44,852 nt of DNA, from the sequence record PZ239914.1; one strand, given 5' to 3'. Positions 20,999 through 42,012 of the stretch are shown in pieces. Made by a program: the position numbers and the translations under genes. Source of the DNA: a phage. Below the pieces are notes generated by a model. It ran no database searches and was not told the origin of the DNA. It worked only from the letters and a program-made list of their open reading frames with translations. Position 1 is the stretch's first letter. Each line of letters opens with the position of its first letter.

Positions 20999-21028
20999 TT
21001 GCATTGCGGATGTTGGTTGCAGTATATT
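20999..21028 (+). promoter_or_regulatory. candidate sigma70-type promoter (TTGCAT-18-TATATT) with two TTGGTTGCA motifs
   Basis: AT-rich upstream tract at 20961-20998; motifs at 21012-21020 and 21026-21034; drives the plus genes at 21064-22182. Confidence 0.45.
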
Positions 21029-21063
21029 GGTTGCACACCAACAGAGATATGAAGGAAAACAAA

Positions 21064-28796: not shown

Positions 28797-28859
28797 GTGT
28801 AATACTCCTCTCGTTGATTGGTCGCAGTATGGCGTCTATGTTGGTTGCAAGTCAAGCAA

Positions 28860-32126: not shown

Positions 32127-32154
32127 TGTTCAGTCCTCCGGTTGGTGTGCAACC

Positions 32155-32183
32155 AAAATATCAGGGTGCCAGGCTGAATGCAA
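32155..32183 (-). promoter_or_regulatory. candidate sigma70-type promoter (TTGCAT-17-TATTTT) with two TTGGTTGCA motifs
   Basis: Minus-strand motifs at 32148-32156 and 32179-32188. Confidence 0.4.
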
Positions 32184-32338
32184 CCAATATTAATCACGCG
32201 CATGAAAAAGTTGATCGCTATCTGCTGCAACTGCAAACTGCATTTTCTGCCCACCATTCAGCAACTCGCATTGGTTGCCTAGTTCATCCGCGACCGCACT
32301 TCGCATCATGCTGCCGTGTATTTTGCAATCCCCGGATT

Positions 32339-32512
32339 TTATGCAGTCTCAGACGAGGGGGGCCATTGACCCCCGTCTAGTCTGAAAGACTGGTAGTTGT
32401 CCCGCTTGTCCCGCTCCCCTCCAGGCCGCGTCCTCCGGGGCGGGACGGGGGTGCTGTCCCGTTTTGTCCCGCCTCTTGTTTGTCCCGCTTTTTGTCCCGC
32501 TTAGTTTATGCA
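32339..32512. repeat. iteron-rich noncoding repeat element, copy B
   Basis: Same 5' hairpin module and six TGTCCCGCT-type iterons as copy A, with a divergent central spacer; between the primase end and the 31800-32126 gene. Confidence 0.8.
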
Positions 32513-32586
32513 ATAAAACTGCATAACTATTCACTATATTCACACTACACGGCAACCAATACGACCAGATAAAAACACTCAAAATG

Positions 32587-32669
32587 GCAACCAATGCGCG
32601 CAAAATTTAATCTTTTAGCGATATGGGAATTCCCATATCGGCAACCAATACGCGCAAAATTTAATCTTT
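32587..32669. repeat. 30-bp direct repeats flanking a 20-bp perfect palindrome at the primase 3' end
   Basis: GGCAACCAAT(G/A)CGCGCAAAATTTAATCTTT at 32587-32616 and 32640-32669; palindrome GATATGGGAATTCCCATATC at 32620-32639; second repeat contains the primase stop codon. Confidence 0.7.
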
Positions 32670-34925
32670 CAGGTCGTCATCGGTCGCAGAAAGCGTGATG
32701 GGTATATTCGTTTTTATGACGATATTAGACGACCCATAGATGGCCCCGGTGTGCGGGTCTGTATAAAAACCTAACACTCCGCGCTCCACCATATCGTCAA
32801 TGGCCTTCGTCGATGTGCCACCTTTCGCTAGTCCAGCCTGGCGGACGATTGCCGATTTACTGAATCCGGTATGATCCGGGTTATCTTCCATCAGTTTTTC
32901 CAGTGCCGCATAAAGCACTTTCTCTTTTTCGTTGCGCGGGCCTGCGGCGTTCTCATCCTTAACTGCGGCTTTTCCAGCGGACTTCGCCTGCTCAATGGCG
33001 AACGGTGCCAGGGCGACCGGTACGAGGTAAAGAGTCTCGTCGCGTGGCGTGGATGCAATCGGCTTGACGTCCCAGCCGGCAACCACATCGCCGAAGTCCG
33101 GCCCGGTGCTGGTGGACTGGTGTGCCTCGAACGCTTCGGACTTGCGGAGATCCACCTTAACCTTGCACTTGAGTAGTACGAAGCCGCGCGGCGCTTGCTT
33201 GATGCCGTTACGCGCCTTTTCGTGATACAGGTTCAATTGGCCGGGCTGATTGTCGTCCGGTTGCTCCAGGAAGAACGCAGAATCAACAGCACCATGCAGC
33301 GCGCCGGACCCGCGGGGGGTTCTGCTGCCGTTTGCGCCCTTCGCCGGGTGATGGATGACGCCCGCGCTGCCGCCTGTATTTTCCGCAATGGCCTTCAGCG
33401 CTTTGACCACTTCGCCCATATCGCTGGCGTTGTTCTCGTCGAACGGTTTAGCATCGGCGGACCGCAACGCTACAGTCTGGTTGAGTGAGTCGAACGCCAC
33501 CAGGCCAACCGGTTCGCCGTTAGCGGTGCGGTTGATGAAGCTGATAACTTCACGCAATCCTGACTTGCTGGTGATATCCCAGCCGCGTGATTGCAGATCG
33601 ATAATGTGCAGCTTGTCCAGGTCGTGCTCGTATTTAATCTGCAATGCTTCCTTACGCTGGTTGGAGGCTTCGCCGCCTTCCGCGTCGAAATAGAAGTTAT
33701 GGCACTGGACGACCTTCGCACCGCCAAACGGGATACCGGCAGATACGGACGCCATCTGGCCCAGCACATAGAACGATTTACCGATGTTCGACTCACCGGC
33801 AAGATACCAGGTCGATTTGAAGTTGACCAGGCCTTCTATGATCGGGTCGTGCTTACTGAACAGTGCGACCGGTTCGTTGTCCAGGTCGGCATCGGTACAT
33901 ACGCCGTACTCGTCGCCATCTCCGACCGCATCGACGATATGCTCATAGCACGATTCCACCTCCTCGTCGTCCAGTCCAGGGAGGATGGCGGCGATTTGCT
34001 TACGTGACATGTTGTGCGGTTCGACGTTCAGGTGGTCCGGGATCCCTATAAGACGTAGCGCCAGGTGCTGGTGTCTGTTCAGTTCCGAGCAACACTCGTT
34101 GCCGGTGTGCATACACTTGAAACGGATCTCGCCATCCTTAACCATGATAGCCGTCGACCCTTCGCCGCTGTGCAGGTGTTCGTTAGGGCACGGCACTTCA
34201 TAGCCCCGACCGGACGACAGTGGCTCGAATCCTGCCTGGAAGCACCAATCCAGAATGCCGTCAGCCACACCATCATCGCCCTGGGTTAGTTCGCGGCGTA
34301 CTTCCTCTTTTTCCATTCCCAGCTTATCAGCCAGGCGAAGCAGACGACGGACACGGGCGCGCTTTCCGTAATGGCATTTAATAACAGACTGCTGGTGTGG
34401 CAGGTACATTAGGCGGTTAGTGTCTTTCGTGCAATCGTCGAAGTCCACATCTGACAGGCCCAGTTGGTGTAATAGTGCATACTGGACGCGGCCCAGGTCT
34501 TCAGCCGGTACAGGCTTGTCAGTGAGCACCAGGAAACGAGCGCAACGCGTGCCGCCTTTCAGCGGGTGGCGGTCGCCGGTAGTGGTGTGAAATACATGTT
34601 CCAGTCCCGCGTCGATGAAAGCCTTACGGCAGCGGCGCAGGGTGCGGGTGTCGGTGCGGTCAATATCGAAGAACAGGATCGAGCGGTCCACAGCACTGGT
34701 CTTGCGGCGTAAGCCGTCACTGGTATACGCCACGATGCCATCGGCCTTACGCTTGCGTCGCGCATACTCGGCTTTATCTTCCGTTTTGTTGATATGCACC
34801 GAGGAGATTTCTTTCGCATCATTGATAAATTCGAAAAACTCTTCGGTAGTCATCTGGAAGTTTTCCGCCCGGGCTTTTTCGCCTTTTTTAGCGGGTCGTG
34901 TTACAGCGAATTTAATTAAGCTCAT
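32661..34925 (-). CDS. DNA primase / P-loop helicase fusion protein
   Basis: 754 aa; Walker A GESNIGKS; Cys/His-rich zinc-binding-like segment CPNEHLHSGEGSTAIMVKDGEIRFKCMHTGNECC. Confidence 0.75.
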   Translation of the reverse strand: MSLIKFAVTRPAKKGEKARAENFQMTTEEFFEFINDAKEISSVHINKTEDKAEYARRKRKADGIVAYTSDGLRRKTSAVDRSILFFDIDRTDTRTLRRCRKAFIDAGLEHVFHTTTGDRHPLKGGTRCARFLVLTDKPVPAEDLGRVQYALLHQLGLSDVDFDDCTKDTNRLMYLPHQQSVIKCHYGKRARVRRLLRLADKLGMEKEEVRRELTQGDDGVADGILDWCFQAGFEPLSSGRGYEVPCPNEHLHSGEGSTAIMVKDGEIRFKCMHTGNECCSELNRHQHLALRLIGIPDHLNVEPHNMSRKQIAAILPGLDDEEVESCYEHIVDAVGDGDEYGVCTDADLDNEPVALFSKHDPIIEGLVNFKSTWYLAGESNIGKSFYVLGQMASVSAGIPFGGAKVVQCHNFYFDAEGGEASNQRKEALQIKYEHDLDKLHIIDLQSRGWDITSKSGLREVISFINRTANGEPVGLVAFDSLNQTVALRSADAKPFDENNASDMGEVVKALKAIAENTGGSAGVIHHPAKGANGSRTPRGSGALHGAVDSAFFLEQPDDNQPGQLNLYHEKARNGIKQAPRGFVLLKCKVKVDLRKSEAFEAHQSTSTGPDFGDVVAGWDVKPIASTPRDETLYLVPVALAPFAIEQAKSAGKAAVKDENAAGPRNEKEKVLYAALEKLMEDNPDHTGFSKSAIVRQAGLAKGGTSTKAIDDMVERGVLGFYTDPHTGAIYGSSNIVIKTNIPITLSATDDDLKD

Positions 34926-34935
34926 TGCCGTGGCC

Positions 34936-35265
34936 TTACTTAGAAGTTTTATTATTGCGTACCCAGGAGCGCACTGTGCTCTGATTAATTCCGGTCAACT
35001 CGGCGATCATTGCCCAGGACTTTCCCTCATTGCGCAAACGGATAACCTGCTTTTTGTATTCTTCCATTTCTTCATTGTGTTTTTGCAGCTTGCTCGCTGC
35101 CGTACCGTTGAGCAATTCCAGCCTGGCGCGTAATTCTTTTTCGGCACTGCGCAGACGTTCGATTTCAAATAACACCGCCCCCACGGCATCTGTATAAGCC
35201 CATGACCGGCTTGTCTCACTGCAAACAGTCTTCGTTAACATTTCGATTGCGTCGTTTACATTCAT
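34936..35265 (-). CDS. HTH DNA-binding protein (109 aa)
   Basis: C-terminal HTH-like KSWAMIAELTGINQSTVRSWV; coiled-coil N-terminus; GAGGG RBS; first gene of the leftward arm. Confidence 0.55.
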   Translation of the reverse strand: MNVNDAIEMLTKTVCSETSRSWAYTDAVGAVLFEIERLRSAEKELRARLELLNGTAASKLQKHNEEMEEYKKQVIRLRNEGKSWAMIAELTGINQSTVRSWVRNNKTSK

Positions 35266-35296
35266 TGCTCTGCCCTCAGTTGGTTAATGACCAACG

Positions 35297-35325
35297 AAAC
35301 TACACCCAAAACTGCACGGTGTCAA
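35297..35325 (-). promoter_or_regulatory. candidate leftward promoter (TTGACA-17-TAGTTT)
   Basis: Minus-strand perfect -35 TTGACA with a weak -10; about 25 nt upstream of the HTH gene RBS. Confidence 0.3.
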
Positions 35326-35441
35326 ATCCTTTGGATATTGAAACGGGCGCGCACGCGTGTAATAATAATTCCCGTCTCATTGTCTCTTATTGGTTAGCGC
35401 CGTCGCATTTTGCCTCGGCGCTTTTTTTTTAAAATTAGTTG

Positions 35442-35471
35442 TTGACACCCATCCTGCAACCAATCTATCAT
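35442..35471 (+). promoter_or_regulatory. candidate strong rightward promoter (TTGACA-18-TATCAT) with upstream T/A tract
   Basis: Perfect -35 TTGACA at 35442-35447, -10 TATCAT at 35466-35471, T9A4 tract at 35422-35434; TGCAACCAAT motif in the spacer. Confidence 0.5.
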
Positions 35472-35667
35472 TCACTCCGTCGACAGGATGCAGGACGCAA
35501 ACTGGAGAGGGGCAACGCAGGGGCCGGATCGAAGTGTCAGGATTCCCAACCGTGATTATATAACCCGGTCCACTACCCGAACGGGAGAACGCGCAACCGG
35601 GCAATATGTTAAGGCCACCGACGAAGTTAACTGCCGACACCTAAACTTAACCAATCGGAGATATACC

Positions 35668-36183
35668 ATGTTTGAGCAAATCGTAAACCTGATCACTCGC
35701 GGCGTAGTAGCACTGGAAACCATCGCTAAACATTATGAAACCGTTGGCGCTGCCGTTGGTAAGCAGGAAGACAAGAAGCCGTCTAAGGCCAAAAAAGAAG
35801 TTGTCGAAGATGACGACAATGACGCCGAAGACGAAAAACCGGCTAAATCTAAAAAAGCCCCGGCGAAAGGCAAGGCCAAAAAAGAAGTCGTAGAAGATGA
35901 CGACGATGATGCCGAAGACGAAAAACCGGCTAAATCTAAAAAAGCCCCGGCGAAAGGCAAAGGTAAGAAAGATGCCGATCCGCTGGCGGAGATGCGCGAC
36001 GAAATCAAACAATATGCCGCTATTATTGCCGGTGGCGATGACGACGACGCGAACGACGAATTCGACGACCTGCTGGAATCGTTCGAGATCAAATCAATCG
36101 CCAAGCTGGAAGATGACGACGTCGAAGACTTCCACACAGAGTTGAAAGAGATCGTCGAAACCTATTTCGAACTGGAAGATTAA
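35668..36183 (+). CDS. highly acidic tandem-repeat protein (171 aa), candidate DNA mimic
   Basis: ATG with GGAGA RBS; two 29-aa repeats KKEVVEDDD(N/D)DAEDEKPAKSKKAPAKGK; Asp/Glu-rich C-terminus; first gene after the strong promoter. Confidence 0.6.
   Translation: MFEQIVNLITRGVVALETIAKHYETVGAAVGKQEDKKPSKAKKEVVEDDDNDAEDEKPAKSKKAPAKGKAKKEVVEDDDDDAEDEKPAKSKKAPAKGKGKKDADPLAEMRDEIKQYAAIIAGGDDDDANDEFDDLLESFEIKSIAKLEDDDVEDFHTELKEIVETYFELED
35791..35964 (+). repeat. 2 x 87-bp in-frame tandem direct repeat
   Basis: 35791-35877 and 35878-35964 are near-identical. Confidence 0.8.
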
Positions 36184-36191
36184 TGTATTCC

Positions 36192-36218
36192 GGCCCGCTA
36201 ATCTGCGGGCCTCTTTTT
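36192..36218 (+). terminator. intrinsic terminator after the acidic protein gene
   Basis: GGCCCGC-taatct-GCGGGCC followed by a T-run. Confidence 0.55.
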
Positions 36219-36231
36219 AGAGGACGAGACA

Positions 36232-36483
36232 ATGGCACGCTTCACGCTAATCGAGGCGGTGGACTCCCGCGACCAACGCCCGTATTATTGGCTATTCGAA
36301 CGCATCGGCAATTTTCAGTCACGCGTTGCCGTAATAGACAAACGCCGCAACACCCCCGCGCAAATTAAGCGCACCACCTTTACTAATCCCGACTTTTATA
36401 TTTGGGCGGATTCCAATCTGGAATATGTTCGCTTCGCAGTTGCATCCGAAGCAAGAACAATCGACCGCTGGGAGACAAAATAA
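36232..36483 (+). CDS. hypothetical protein (83 aa)
   Basis: ATG with GGACGAGACA upstream; no recognised motif. Confidence 0.5.
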   Translation: MARFTLIEAVDSRDQRPYYWLFERIGNFQSRVAVIDKRRNTPAQIKRTTFTNPDFYIWADSNLEYVRFAVASEARTIDRWETK

Positions 36484-41733: not shown

Positions 41734-42012
41734 ATGACACCAGAAGGCAAGGTGCAGCGTCACCTGATGAAACGGGTGAAAGAGGTCGGCGGATTCTGCC
41801 GAAAACTGGCATGGGAGGGGCGCGCGGGTGCGCCCGACCTGATTATTATCATCAACGGCAAAATAGTGTTCGTCGAAGTGAAGCGCCACGGAGGAAAACC
41901 GAAGCCGCACCAGGTACGTGAACATGAGCGAATGGTCCGCCGCGGTGCTGACGTTCGCGTCATCGACAACATAGCCGACTGCGATTTATTGGTTGCTGAA
42001 TTGGTCGCGTAG
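41734..42012 (+). CDS. VRR-NUC domain nuclease
   Basis: 92 aa; GAPDLIIIINGKIVFVEVKRHGGKPKPHQ pattern typical of VRR-NUC. Confidence 0.75.
   Translation: MTPEGKVQRHLMKRVKEVGGFCRKLAWEGRAGAPDLIIIINGKIVFVEVKRHGGKPKPHQVREHERMVRRGADVRVIDNIADCDLLVAELVA

Follow-up and report, generated by a model that had tools for sequence, protein, structure and literature searches.

The c4 RNA of phages P1 and P7, sar of P22 and OOP of lambda are phage RNAs that act as antisense or trans repressors. The T7 gene 10 leader and the ompA 5′ UTR combine a 5′-terminal stabilizer hairpin with a strong ribosome-binding site. Among RNAs bound by CsrA are the flhDC 5′ leader and the sponges CsrB and CsrC, which carry about 9–22 GGA motifs, most of them in hairpin loops. 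In phage HK022, put enables RNA polymerase to resist terminators, acting through the zinc-binding domain of the β′ subunit. The put RNA is ~70 nt long and has two stem-loops; putL begins with nucleotide 3 of the PL transcript and functions without the help of any phage protein (PMC9378689).

The window analyzed here, that is, the whole 44,852-nt stretch of record PZ239914.1, is a Dhillonvirus genome, and in the region of interest it is 98.6% identical to Sodalis phage SO-1. Both Dhillonviruses and T1-like phages are frequently encountered on E. coli, and members of both are used in phage therapy mixtures and in the BASEL collection of reference phages; to our knowledge, their early regulation is essentially unstudied. 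The region at 35266–35667 is the early on-switch, or control region, of this virulent coliphage. An earlier note had described it as a dense, divergent control region, and outward-facing promoters predicted on both strands support this description, as does the presence of five promoter-like sites in 2 kb compared with 1.8 ± 1.3 in shuffled sequences. Every sequence feature listed in that note was found, in places at slightly shifted coordinates. The most notable feature of the region is the leader RNA domain at the head of the rightward mRNA, which is, on comparative sequence evidence, a previously undescribed RNA family with clear covariation. Rfam 15 covariance models gave no gathering-level match anywhere in the window, and the known-RNA search found no tRNA or tmRNA. 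We tentatively propose a model, to which as a whole we give somewhat less than an even chance, in which outward promoters are combined with an anti-Shine-Dalgarno (anti-SD) small RNA and with a portable 5′ leader RNA that binds a conserved host factor.

Two σ70 promoters placed back-to-back would fire outward. The leftward early promoter (35297–35325, minus strand), read from the sequence, consists of TTGACA at 35325–35320, a 17-nt spacer and TAGTTT at 35302–35297. It was missed by the promoter scan because its weak −10 box matches at just 3/6 positions. The TTGACA promoter proposed earlier is nevertheless present: across Dhillonvirus variants its hexamers and their GGTGTAGTTT context are conserved and the spacer is variable. 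Leftward transcription, with a predicted start near 35288–35291, would drive the 109-aa HTH regulator and the primase/helicase operon. An operator-like palindrome, GTTGGTTAATGACCAAC (35279–35295, assigned to neither strand), covers the leftward transcription start and 5′ UTR. The palindrome is unique in the window (chance expectation 0.07), is nearly invariant in a four-genome alignment, and has a mean identity of 0.97 over 21 variants. On the mRNA it reads UAACCAA just 5′ of the SD sequence of the HTH gene.

Back-to-back with the leftward promoter lies the small-RNA promoter (35338–35366, plus strand; TTGAAA-17-TGtAATAAT), which the promoter scan recovered at the place claimed before with a 10/12 match plus TG extension, and whose column identity is 98–99% in 21 Dhillonvirus variants. 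It would give rise to a candidate small RNA of ~53–57 nt (35374–35430, plus strand), made up of an unstructured 24-nt 5′ part, the seed GUCUCAUUGUCUCUUAUUGGUUA (35374–35396), followed by a terminator hairpin (35396–35422) and a T9 tract (U9 in the RNA; 35422–35430). The seed is 100% invariant in the 21 variants. The hairpin, which like the T9 tract had been noticed before, folds with an energy of −16.7 kcal/mol (z = −4.15; 0/200 shuffles fold as well) and is annotated as a terminator in phage WF5505. In the divergent phage LM40P1, two of its stem pairs are changed on both sides (G-C to U-A and G-C to C-G), and thus the GC-rich stem-loop and U-run of an intrinsic terminator are accompanied by evidence of selection, both in the folding score and in the compensatory pairs. 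The locus was present in 5/5 full genomes checked, four of which lack the leader domain. The suggestion that a short terminated transcript could be made here gains support from the promoter, 24-nt part and terminator, which are kept in every Dhillonvirus examined. Judged from sequence features alone, the locus also has what we looked for in an Hfq-type trans-acting small-RNA module: its own promoter, a single-stranded seed, a GC-rich terminator hairpin, a U-tail of at least 7 and a U-rich stretch 5′ of the hairpin. A 36-aa ORF (35288–35397) that overlaps the small RNA was rejected as coding; an indel breaks its frame in YD-2008.s.

On either side, the first gene has a ribosome-binding region to which the seed is complementary. 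The predicted duplex with the start region of the right gene has an energy of −18.5 kcal/mol (seed-shuffle p = 0.006) and that with the HTH start region −19.9 kcal/mol (p = 0.02; p = 0.0005 for both duplexes jointly), energies that several non-initiation sites match or beat in a scan of the whole window. Among 231 ORF starts, the HTH start region ranks third for seed pairing; the true start region of the right gene, scored separately, would rank within the top five. Of the 4 copies of TTGGTTA in the 44.8 kb, 3 fall inside this 400 bp. On the rightward mRNA, the predicted target (35648–35663) lies in an unstructured linker that runs into the translation start of a 171-aa acidic protein (35640–35670, plus strand), with UAACCAAU at 35648–35655, the SD sequence GGAG at 35657–35660 and the ATG at 35668. 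The HTH leader has the same design, UUAACCAAY-N-GGAG, as do early leaders of Hanrivervirus. The invariant single-stranded sequence UGUCUCU-U-AUUGGUUA is antisense to the design common to both first genes, UAACCAAY-N-GGAGAYA. The small RNA thus probably blocks the start sites of two neighboring genes, acting as a trans anti-SD repressor that would limit or time early translation. If it works as predicted, it is a compact case of one RNA governing two divergent operons via a common ribosome-binding design.

Like c4, sar and OOP, the ~55-nt RNA would be a short promoter-to-terminator transcript with a single-stranded part complementary to nearby regulatory ribosome-binding sites, and like c4 it is encoded near its targets and not opposite them. 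Unlike c4, it belongs to a virulent phage with no immunity context, and Rfam searches of the region matched neither the P1/P7 c4 family nor any other. It further differs from all three in having two targets on opposite strands with one ribosome-binding design; here, both expression and repression are predictions.

The AACCAAY core of the target design also forms part of a genome-wide DNA box, making a protein-binding reading of these bases possible. The short transcript could then be functionless, its hairpin and T-run an insulator and UP element, and TTGGTTA/TAACCAA a pair of DNA half-sites for a regulator such as the 109-aa HTH protein. The core is common to the GCAACCAAT box, which recurs genome-wide at promoter-like sites, palindromes included (35 copies versus 21 ± 4.8), one copy of the motif sits inside the palindrome at the leftward start site, and the product of the neighboring gene is a Sigma70_r4_2/HTH_23 protein. 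However, all 24 nt of the seed are invariant, well beyond a 7–9-nt box, and in both targets the pairing extends over the SD sequence (UGUCUCU with GGAGAUA or GGAGACA). If the transcript were a by-product, there would be no point in conserving an extended −10 promoter for it, and phage HK578 keeps the small-RNA locus despite having a different leftward gene and no palindrome. We therefore consider the DNA-site explanation somewhat unlikely and favor a small RNA that pairs with both start sites.

The main early promoter (35422–35471, plus strand) is the strong rightward promoter previously proposed; its core, TTGACA-18-TATCAT (11/12), has its −35 box at 35442–35447 and its −10 box at 35466–35471, with a predicted start near 35478/35479. 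UP elements have A/T tracts between −38 and −59, with a distal T-run and a proximal A-run. Upstream of the −35 box, the tract T9 plus AAAATTAG (35422–35441) conforms to this consensus: placed relative to TTGACA at 35442–35447, T9 spans −55 to −47 and AAAATTAG spans −46 to −39. The earlier idea that T9 may simply be an UP element therefore holds insofar as the tract is a near-consensus UP element, but it is not only that, being also the tail of the terminator. In the small RNA this tract is the U-tail, so one sequence would serve both the short transcript and, as UP element, the main early promoter. The promoter spacer contains a GCAACCAAT box (35456–35464), and both this box and the UP tract are invariant in the 21 variants.

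The 7-bp inverted repeat reported to bracket the −10 box does exist, with CATCCTG at 35450–35456 and its partner CAGGATG at 35484–35490, one base from the position first given. Its reading as an operator is not supported: the left arm is not conserved, being CCCTTCTG in other Dhillonviruses, and the right arm is the 5′ strand of an RNA helix (P2, below). The conserved element of the spacer is the GCAACCAAT box and not the arm of the repeat.

From its start near 35478/35479 to the ATG at 35668, the leader has the ~190 nt attributed to it before. Most of it (35479–35639, plus strand; a single copy in the window) forms a structured RNA of seven helices recognized by cross-genus conservation and covariation. 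A terminal helix, P1 (35479–35482 with 35635–35638, extendable to 35486/35631), encloses a ~150-nt domain with a three-way-junction core. Within it follow the P2 hairpin with a GGA loop (35485–35503), GGAGAGG (35504–35510), P3 (35513–35525 with 35613–35626), P4 (35526–35539), the near-invariant junction GGAUUCCCAACCGUGA (35540–35555), P5a (35556–35561 with 35604–35609), P5b (35564–35569 with 35596–35601), CACU (35571–35574), P6 (35576–35578 with 35583–35585) and AGAACGC (35586–35592).

RNAalifold run on MAFFT alignments recovered only part of this structure because the variable stems were misaligned, and we therefore built a structure-aware alignment with invariant blocks as anchors and N as padding. 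Over 43 pairs and 30 distinct copies, standard pairs fill 89.4% of cells versus 72.2% in shuffles, and 24 pairs change on both sides, although these counts are inflated because the alignment was hand-fitted to the structure. The covariation score was 0.408 versus 0.139, a height reached by 0/500 shuffles, and slid-alignment controls were 25–45% paired. For P1 and P5 each, cognate strands outpaired non-cognate strands in 20000/20000 permutations. The changes in P3 are exclusively C-to-U opposite G, in keeping with the plus strand being the RNA. The domain is a conserved, base-paired plus-strand RNA. The single-sequence folding energy of the leader is not unusual relative to shuffles (z = +1.06), and the proposed comparative fold lies 16 kcal/mol above the single-sequence minimum, whose fold differs; the evidence for the structure is comparative, not thermodynamic. 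The earlier remark that the leader may be structured was right but far understated what is a cross-genus domain supported by covariation.

The domain is found in Dhillonvirus, Jilinvirus, Sortsnevirus and several Drexlerviridae. Copies were fetched by exact core patterns; further degenerate and gapped scans of IMG/VR yielded only three more true copies, and four candidates (L026, L029, L031 and L042) were discarded as chance matches. The core is nearly identical in Dhillonvirus, Jilinvirus, Sortsnevirus, HeidiAbel, MQ-4, Hanrivervirus, Changchunvirus, Motto and KMI8, so that in the sequences compared the junction core hardly varies among several unclassified phages and a minimum of four named genera. 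Scans of GTDB genomes and JGI metagenomes revealed no copy outside phage-like contigs, and BLAST against 5,426 E. coli genomes gave no match, neither a host-RNA mimic nor a prophage copy. When three divergent copies were searched against Rfam, nothing at E ≤ 10 overlapped the domain, and a literature search by sequence strings and topic found no description of the element. Like ROOL, GOLLD and DUF2693-FD, the domain is a phage-carried, conserved orphan RNA supported by covariation. It is much smaller than ROOL and GOLLD and, unlike the Rfam orphan RNAs, it is confined to Enterobacterales siphophages, always lies at an mRNA 5′ end and matches no model.

Every copy lies directly 3′ of a σ70 promoter, with P1 starting at most 10 nt from the −10 box, and ends 29–58 nt 5′ of a start codon, the genes being unrelated: ten first downstream genes belong to ten different PHROGs, all of unknown function. 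Within Dhillonvirus there is a clean ~150-nt presence/absence difference in which P1 is kept as a small hairpin, the natural junction of the YD-2008.s type corresponding to absence of 35487–35630, and Hanriverviruses without the domain have the same 5′ hairpin (GGGCG..CGCCC) behind the same promoter type. These relatives show that the operon works without the domain. In every case, then, the domain forms the extreme 5′ terminus of a predicted early mRNA; it does not depend on which gene follows, and it is dispensable. It would be a portable RNA module inserted in the loop of a 5′-terminal hairpin that relatives without it keep. Those relatives resemble the T7 gene 10 and ompA leaders, in that a simple hairpin at the 5′ end precedes UUAACCAAU-N-GGAGAUAUACC-AUG, with an SD context identical to the T7 gene 10 ribosome-binding core GGAGAUAUAC. 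In contrast to the T7 and ompA leaders, the hairpin loop here is expanded by a 150-nt multi-helix domain, for which simple end protection is an insufficient explanation. The natural presence/absence variants make isogenic comparisons easy.

Our leading inference is that the domain acts as a portable module at the 5′ end of the RNA and that its partner is a conserved host factor. The transcript of the main promoter would start inside P1, and the domain would fold upon transcription, burying the 5′ end in P1 and presenting the GGA-containing loop and the junction to a conserved component of the Enterobacterales host. This partner could be the ribosome, RNA polymerase or an RNA-binding protein, for example CsrA, and the effect in cis would be to protect or boost the early transcript that the domain heads. 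As in CsrA targets, the P2 loop displays (C/A)A-GGA-U a few nucleotides from the 5′ end, resembling CAGGAUG repeats, and two further GGA motifs follow. Unlike CsrB and CsrC, however, the leader has one loop GGA (P2) and two that are single-stranded, one of them not conserved, which falls short of a sponge, and its near-invariant CCCAACCGUGA, CACU, AGAACGC and CGACGAAG have no counterpart in CsrA targets. One copy (L054) has GAA in place of GGA in the junction. As read from sequence, a GGA loop and two single-stranded GGA motifs are far from proof of CsrA or ribosome binding. No phage protein that co-occurs with the domain was found among the window ORFs when four genomes without the domain were compared with one that has it. 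If the domain does bind a host factor, it could provide a new RNA-based means of raising expression in E. coli or represent a new class of RNA-only counter-defence.

Of the alternatives for the domain, a trans-acting role fares best, although we judge it unlikely. The domain would then be an RNA effector that inhibits a host protein or defence system, or serves as its decoy or sponge; it would be the first product that the infection makes, perhaps cut out of the mRNA at P1, with the hairpin loop as a safe place to carry it. Being closed by its own helix, it would leave the host leader undisturbed. Within a genus some phages have it and others lack it, and it moves from genus to genus as accessory or anti-defence genes do; it does not depend on the gene that follows, no phage protein partner was found for it, and the strongest early promoter, with its UP element, drives it. 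The near-invariant core suggests a conserved macromolecular target, and a homologue of one of the downstream genes bears the annotation of an anti-restriction protein. Against this, there is no free-standing copy and no copy with its own terminator, all of them lying 29–58 nt from a start codon; the domain is unlike CRISPR repeats, retron RNAs, toxin-antitoxin RNAs and any Rfam family, and BLAST gave no sign of host-RNA mimicry. We consider an extended form of this reading slightly less likely still: a self-contained, horizontally exchanged RNA effector, made from the strongest early promoter before any translation and without need of a phage protein, would be the first functional molecule of infection and would capture or neutralize a conserved host factor in anti-defence or host takeover, maybe as a dimer through the GGAUUCC/GAAUUC junction, while the timing of the early genes would fall to a further layer made of RNA alone, the ~55-nt anti-SD RNA.

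The domain and put are alike in that both are phage RNAs at the very start of an early σ70 transcript with no dedicated phage protein (PMC9378689). It is conceivable, though improbable, that the nascent domain likewise binds host RNA polymerase, or blocks Rho, so that transcription resists pausing or termination. Its position is that of HK022 putL, these phages depend on the host polymerase, a strong terminator lies 0.5 kb downstream and, as in putL, a −10-like motif (CAGGAT/AAGGAT) occurs early in the transcript. However, a ~160-nt RNA with seven helices and a three-way junction is unlike the two stem-loops of put, with which, judging from its description, it has no sequence in common. Close relatives that lack the domain retain the same operon and the same terminator, and the unit seems to comprise a single gene, since a promoter-like site of its own, carrying the box, lies past the terminator.

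Still less probable is a riboswitch-like sensor of a metabolite or signaling nucleotide that would gate the expression of early genes. The architecture is that of an aptamer, with a closing P1, a three-way junction, near-invariant junction bases and covarying stems. The switch would be a competition between an extended P1 and the outer part of P2, since nucleotides immediately 3′ of the P1 core are able to join either helix; in phage Motto one change there is compensated in both partners. But no expression platform follows, neither a terminator nor an SD-sequestering helix after P1 in any lineage; the SD sequence lies 20–40 nt away in linkers of unrelated sequence, the ten downstream PHROGs have no common function, and no known class matches. 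A host-factor-binding module remains our preferred reading.

That the leader is not an RNA element at all, but an N-terminal coding extension from ATG 35488 (an open frame into the downstream gene, so annotated in GeorgBuechner) or a DNA origin or single-strand initiation signal (the element adjoins primase genes in Dhillonvirus and Jilinvirus), is barely credible, given that the frame is closed within 11 codons in other lineages, that substitutions are compensatory in stems and do not fall at codon third positions, that the relatives' protein begins at MFEQ without an extension, that G-U pairs fit the plus strand alone, that a dispensable domain cannot be the replication origin and that the iteron-rich 32127–32660 is a better candidate for one.

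Several database records place spurious proteins over these RNAs (36-aa, 39-aa and 232-aa extended ORFs); besides the extension from 35488, the 39-aa ORF annotated in HeidiAbel was rejected as coding. Short matches to boxA/nut, type I-E/I-F CRISPR repeats and THF or glycine riboswitches, noted by eye, had no model support and were set aside.

Directly 3′ of the first rightward gene, a strong intrinsic terminator (36192–36217, plus strand; 7 G-C pairs and a T-run) closes a short early transcription unit; the same terminator is annotated at −17.2 kcal/mol in WF5505, a phage without the leader domain. The box-bearing promoter-like site mentioned above lies beyond this terminator. Elsewhere in the window, the iteron-rich stretch at 32127–32660 is non-coding.

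Across 35100-35800 the sequence shares 95-99% identity with many Escherichia phages in the genus Dhillonvirus, which are virulent siphophages of ~44 kb; the top match is Sodalis phage SO-1 (98.6%). Two gene sets diverge from a 402-bp gap. Leftward lie the gene for a 109-aa HTH protein (35265-34936; Pfam Sigma70_r4_2 and HTH_23) and, after it, that for a 754-aa primase/helicase (AAA_25), and the first rightward gene, starting at 35668, encodes a 171-aa acidic repeat protein (phrog_3127, function unknown). This early, lysine-rich protein contains an 87-bp in-frame tandem repeat (35785-35960, 2.0 copies, 95% identical); its Dhillonvirus homologues span 143-181 aa and differ in repeat length and copy number, and the record of phage welsh annotates the repeat as a repeat_region. 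A strong terminator lies directly 3' of the 171-aa gene (36192-36211) and is retained by relatives without the leader domain described below; after it comes a weak promoter-like site carrying a GCGACCAAC box (36260-36288). The domain therefore heads a short early unit that looks monocistronic, and replication genes downstream may depend on a factor that binds the box.

The control-region picture drawn in the earlier note was largely right. A consensus scan recovered both proposed rightward promoters, TTGAAA-17-AATAAT with a TG extension (35338-35366; 10/12) and the strong TTGACA-18-TATCAT (35442-35471; 11/12), and counted 5 promoter-like sites in 2 kb, compared with 1.8 ± 1.3 in shuffles. The leftward promoter (TTGACA at 35325-35320, 17 nt, TAGTTT at 35302-35297) was missing from the scan because its -10 is too weak; it has conserved hexamers and a variable spacer. 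The hairpin at 35396-35422, followed by T9 (35422-35430), folds at -16.7 kcal/mol (z = -4.15), and none of 200 shuffles was as good. The T9 had also been proposed to be an UP element, and the T9 plus AAAATTAG tract, at -55 to -39 of the strong promoter, does fit the familiar UP-element consensus and is invariant in 21 Dhillonvirus variants. The 7-bp inverted repeat CATCCTG/CAGGATG is present (35450-35456 and 35484-35490), but the idea that it is an operator fails.

The suggestion of a short terminated RNA (~55 nt, 35374-35430, + strand) gains real comparative support. Its locus was found in all five complete genomes tested. Among 21 distinct Dhillonvirus intergenic versions, its promoter (35338-35366) is 98-99% conserved and the 24 nt at 35373-35396 are 100% invariant, while the adjoining leftward spacer and HTH leader vary; in the divergent phage LM40P1, two stem pairs of the terminator are altered on both sides (G-C to U-A and G-C to C-G). 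A 36-aa ORF annotated across this RNA in GeorgBuechner is not coding, as an indel frameshifts it in YD-2008.s. The single-stranded part of the RNA, or seed (UGUCUCU-U-AUUGGUUA, 35381-35396), is predicted to pair with UAACCAAU-C-GGAGAUA at 35648-35663, spanning the Shine-Dalgarno sequence of the 171-aa gene, and with UAACCAAC..GAGGG in the HTH leader; other variants read UAACCAACCGGAGACAG in the HTH leader, where the predicted pairing is even better. Dinucleotide shuffles of the seed reached the observed energies in 0.6% of cases on the right, 2% on the left and 0.05% on both. Scanning the whole window, some non-start sites gave duplexes equal to or better than these. Of the four TTGGTTA copies in 44.8 kb, three lie within this intergenic region.

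There is a real rival to this pairing, namely that the conserved AACCAAY motifs are DNA sites rather than RNA partners, because their core belongs to a GCAACCAAT box that is enriched across the genome and clustered at promoter-like sites, the strong promoter's spacer among them. RACCAAY occurs 35 times versus 21 ± 4.8 in shuffles (0/100 reach 35). Promoter-like, intergenic GCAACCAAY sites lie at 94-117, 2008-2031, 4917, 21012-21032, 28817-28846, 31594, 32182, 32270, 32554-32649, 35456-35464, 36271, 41988-42006 and 43834. The box is probably bound by a phage transcription regulator, and the 109-aa sigma-70 region-4-like HTH protein is one possibility. The site at 2008-2031 is a near-perfect palindrome, TTGCAACCAATAGGTTGGTTGCA.

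When the intergenic region was searched by BLAST, unrelated phages gave short matches of high identity: Jilinvirus Arya, Serratia phage MQ-4, the Hanriverviruses slyngel and swan01, Changchunvirus PHB17, HeidiAbel and Klebsiella phage KMI8. Each of these cross-genus matches lies on the coding strand, in a gap that carries no annotation. Aligning five copies defined a conserved element of ~165 nt (35479-35639 here; the leader domain), with one hairpin altered on both sides across them (CCCGAACGGG, GCCGAAAGGC, GCCACCAGGC, CUCGAAAGAG, CCGGAAACGG). Pattern scans of IMG/VR, GTDB genomes and metagenomes hit phage-like contigs only (22 viral contigs plus metagenome copies), and supplied the divergent copies L054 and L055. 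No Rfam family matched the domain, no copy was present in E. coli genomes, and no paper containing its sequence was found in the literature. The leader thus represents a new family of structured RNA, which makes the locus more interesting than an ordinary phage promoter region.

We derived seven helices by anchoring on invariant blocks; RNAalifold recovered part of the fold only, because MAFFT misaligned the variable stems. P1 (35479-82 with 35635-38) pairs the start of the transcript with a site ~155 nt further along. P2 (35485-35503) is a hairpin with a GGA loop, followed by an invariant single-stranded GGAGAGG (35504-35510). P3 (35513-25 with 35613-26) is a long irregular helix with conserved A-A and C-A/A-G internal loops, and the P4 hairpin (35526-39) leads into J4/5, a near-invariant 16-nt junction (GGAUUCCCAACCGUGA, 35540-55). 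P5a (35556-61 with 35604-09) and P5b (35564-69 with 35596-601) form a two-part helix, and P6 (35576-78 with 35583-85) is flanked by invariant CACU and AGAACGC.

That the long leader may be structured, as had been proposed, is borne out by covariation. In a structure-aware alignment of 30 distinct copies, with segments padded with N so that MAFFT preserved all columns, standard pairs filled 89.4% of 1221 cells compared with 72.2 ± 0.7% for shuffled partners (0/500 as high), 24 of 43 pairs were altered on both sides (17.3 with shuffled partners) and the covariation score was 0.408 versus 0.139; since hand fitting inflates pair counts, these figures support the fold rather than give a formal probability. 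Sliding partners by 1-3 columns dropped pairing to 25-45%. Most double changes fall in P1, P2, P5a, P5b and P6. P4 changes from G-C to A-U in KMI8 and from U-G to U-A in IME279 and MQ-4, and L055 has G-U where most copies have U-A and Dhillonvirus a G-A mismatch. The sole variation in P3 is C/U opposite G, consistent with RNA of the + strand. In an alignment-free check of P1 and P5, cognate strands paired far better than between-variant swaps (0/20000 permutations).

The junction GGAUUCC (35540-35546) is a near-palindrome, made perfect (GAAUUC) by a G-to-A change in L054, hinting that two copies could pair with each other. Bases 3' of the P1 core (35484-35486) have alternative partners, 35631-35633 (extended P1) or 35502-35504 (outer P2), seen in columns 14-16 of the domain alignment (A5) in non-Dhillonvirus copies; phage Motto has a C-to-U beside the P1 core compensated in both possible partners, and the overlap may be a conformational switch.

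All copies start no more than about 10 nt from a good -10 box with a matching -35, several behind a terminator-like T-run, and end 29-58 nt 5' of a start codon; none has its own terminator. The first downstream genes are unrelated: ten of them belong to ten PHROGs, all of unknown function. The domain is absent from YD-2008.s, WF5505, LM40P1 and Envy, as a clean ~150-nt difference, and was not found elsewhere in those genomes; from the spread of BLAST matches we estimate that about one in ten Dhillonvirus records lacks it. Such Dhillonviruses retain the promoter, the P1 strands as a small hairpin (e.g. GUCG-AAA-CGAC) and the same ribosome-binding region. The Hanriverviruses damhaus and PGN590, also lacking it, have the same repeated early promoter type and a 5' hairpin GGGCG..CGCCC, then AAACCAAUCAGGAG. 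The domain therefore behaves like an insert in the loop of a 5'-terminal hairpin that was already there. Across five genomes, none of the window's proteins co-occurs with it. It is a base-paired RNA of the + strand, conserved and located at the 5' end of an early mRNA, portable and dispensable, and independent of phage proteins and of downstream gene identity.

Because the domain is always mRNA-attached and close to a start codon, we rank first, tentatively and at somewhat less than even odds, a role in cis in which it protects or boosts the early transcript. P1 would bury the 5' end, and the GGA hairpin loop would lie a few bases away from it. E. coli CsrA uses a loop of this kind to shield the flhDC leader. 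The near-identical junction core in Escherichia, Salmonella, Klebsiella, Enterobacter and Serratia phages suggests a host partner that is itself conserved. Close behind, in second place, comes a trans-acting decoy or anti-defence RNA, though in itself rather unlikely. A put-like antiterminator, next in rank, is improbable: the domain shares its position with put RNA (PMC9378689) but differs in architecture, and relatives without it keep the terminator. A riboswitch-like sensor rates lower still, as a very slim prospect, because an expression platform is absent. Coding or origin readings of the domain are essentially excluded.

In Hanriverviruses an early promoter cassette, AATAGCACTTTTTGTTAAAAC...GGCATAAT, recurs before successive small genes (L056 600-700; L057 770-830 and 1240-1320; L004 2430-2480), and the domain lies behind only one cassette per genome. 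The start region of the 171-aa gene, UUAACCAAUCGGAGAUAUACCAUG (35647-35670), has a T7 gene 10-type RBS core, GGAGAUAUAC. The same AACCAAUC-N-GGAG design occurs 3' of a 5' hairpin in Hanrivervirus early leaders (L056 690-705; L057 about 1320-1340), and the design is also found in the divergent HTH leader, which suggests a strong translation start design common to all three.

Some database entries call for caution. MG065648.1, MG065657.1, OQ221563.1 and ON843697.1, together with QFQS01000013.1 (one contig labelled 'Cereibacter sphaeroides MAG'), are labelled as Campylobacter, Acinetobacter or Pseudomonas phages or as a MAG, yet their sequence is of coliphage type and nearly identical; for these five, the host labels or binning are doubtful. 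Hypothetical proteins annotated over the small RNA or domain (GeorgBuechner bas16_0048/0049, HeidiAbel Bas97_0052, PT1 QIG65642.1), one of them on the opposite strand, are probably spurious.

Downstream of the primase/helicase gene lies a 534-bp non-coding stretch (32127-32660), with at least six copies of TTGTCCCGC at 32397-32507 and repeated GGCAACCAAT(R)CGCGCAAAATTTAATCTTT units at 32586-32670. It looks iteron-like, and a better replication origin candidate than the 35266-35667 region.
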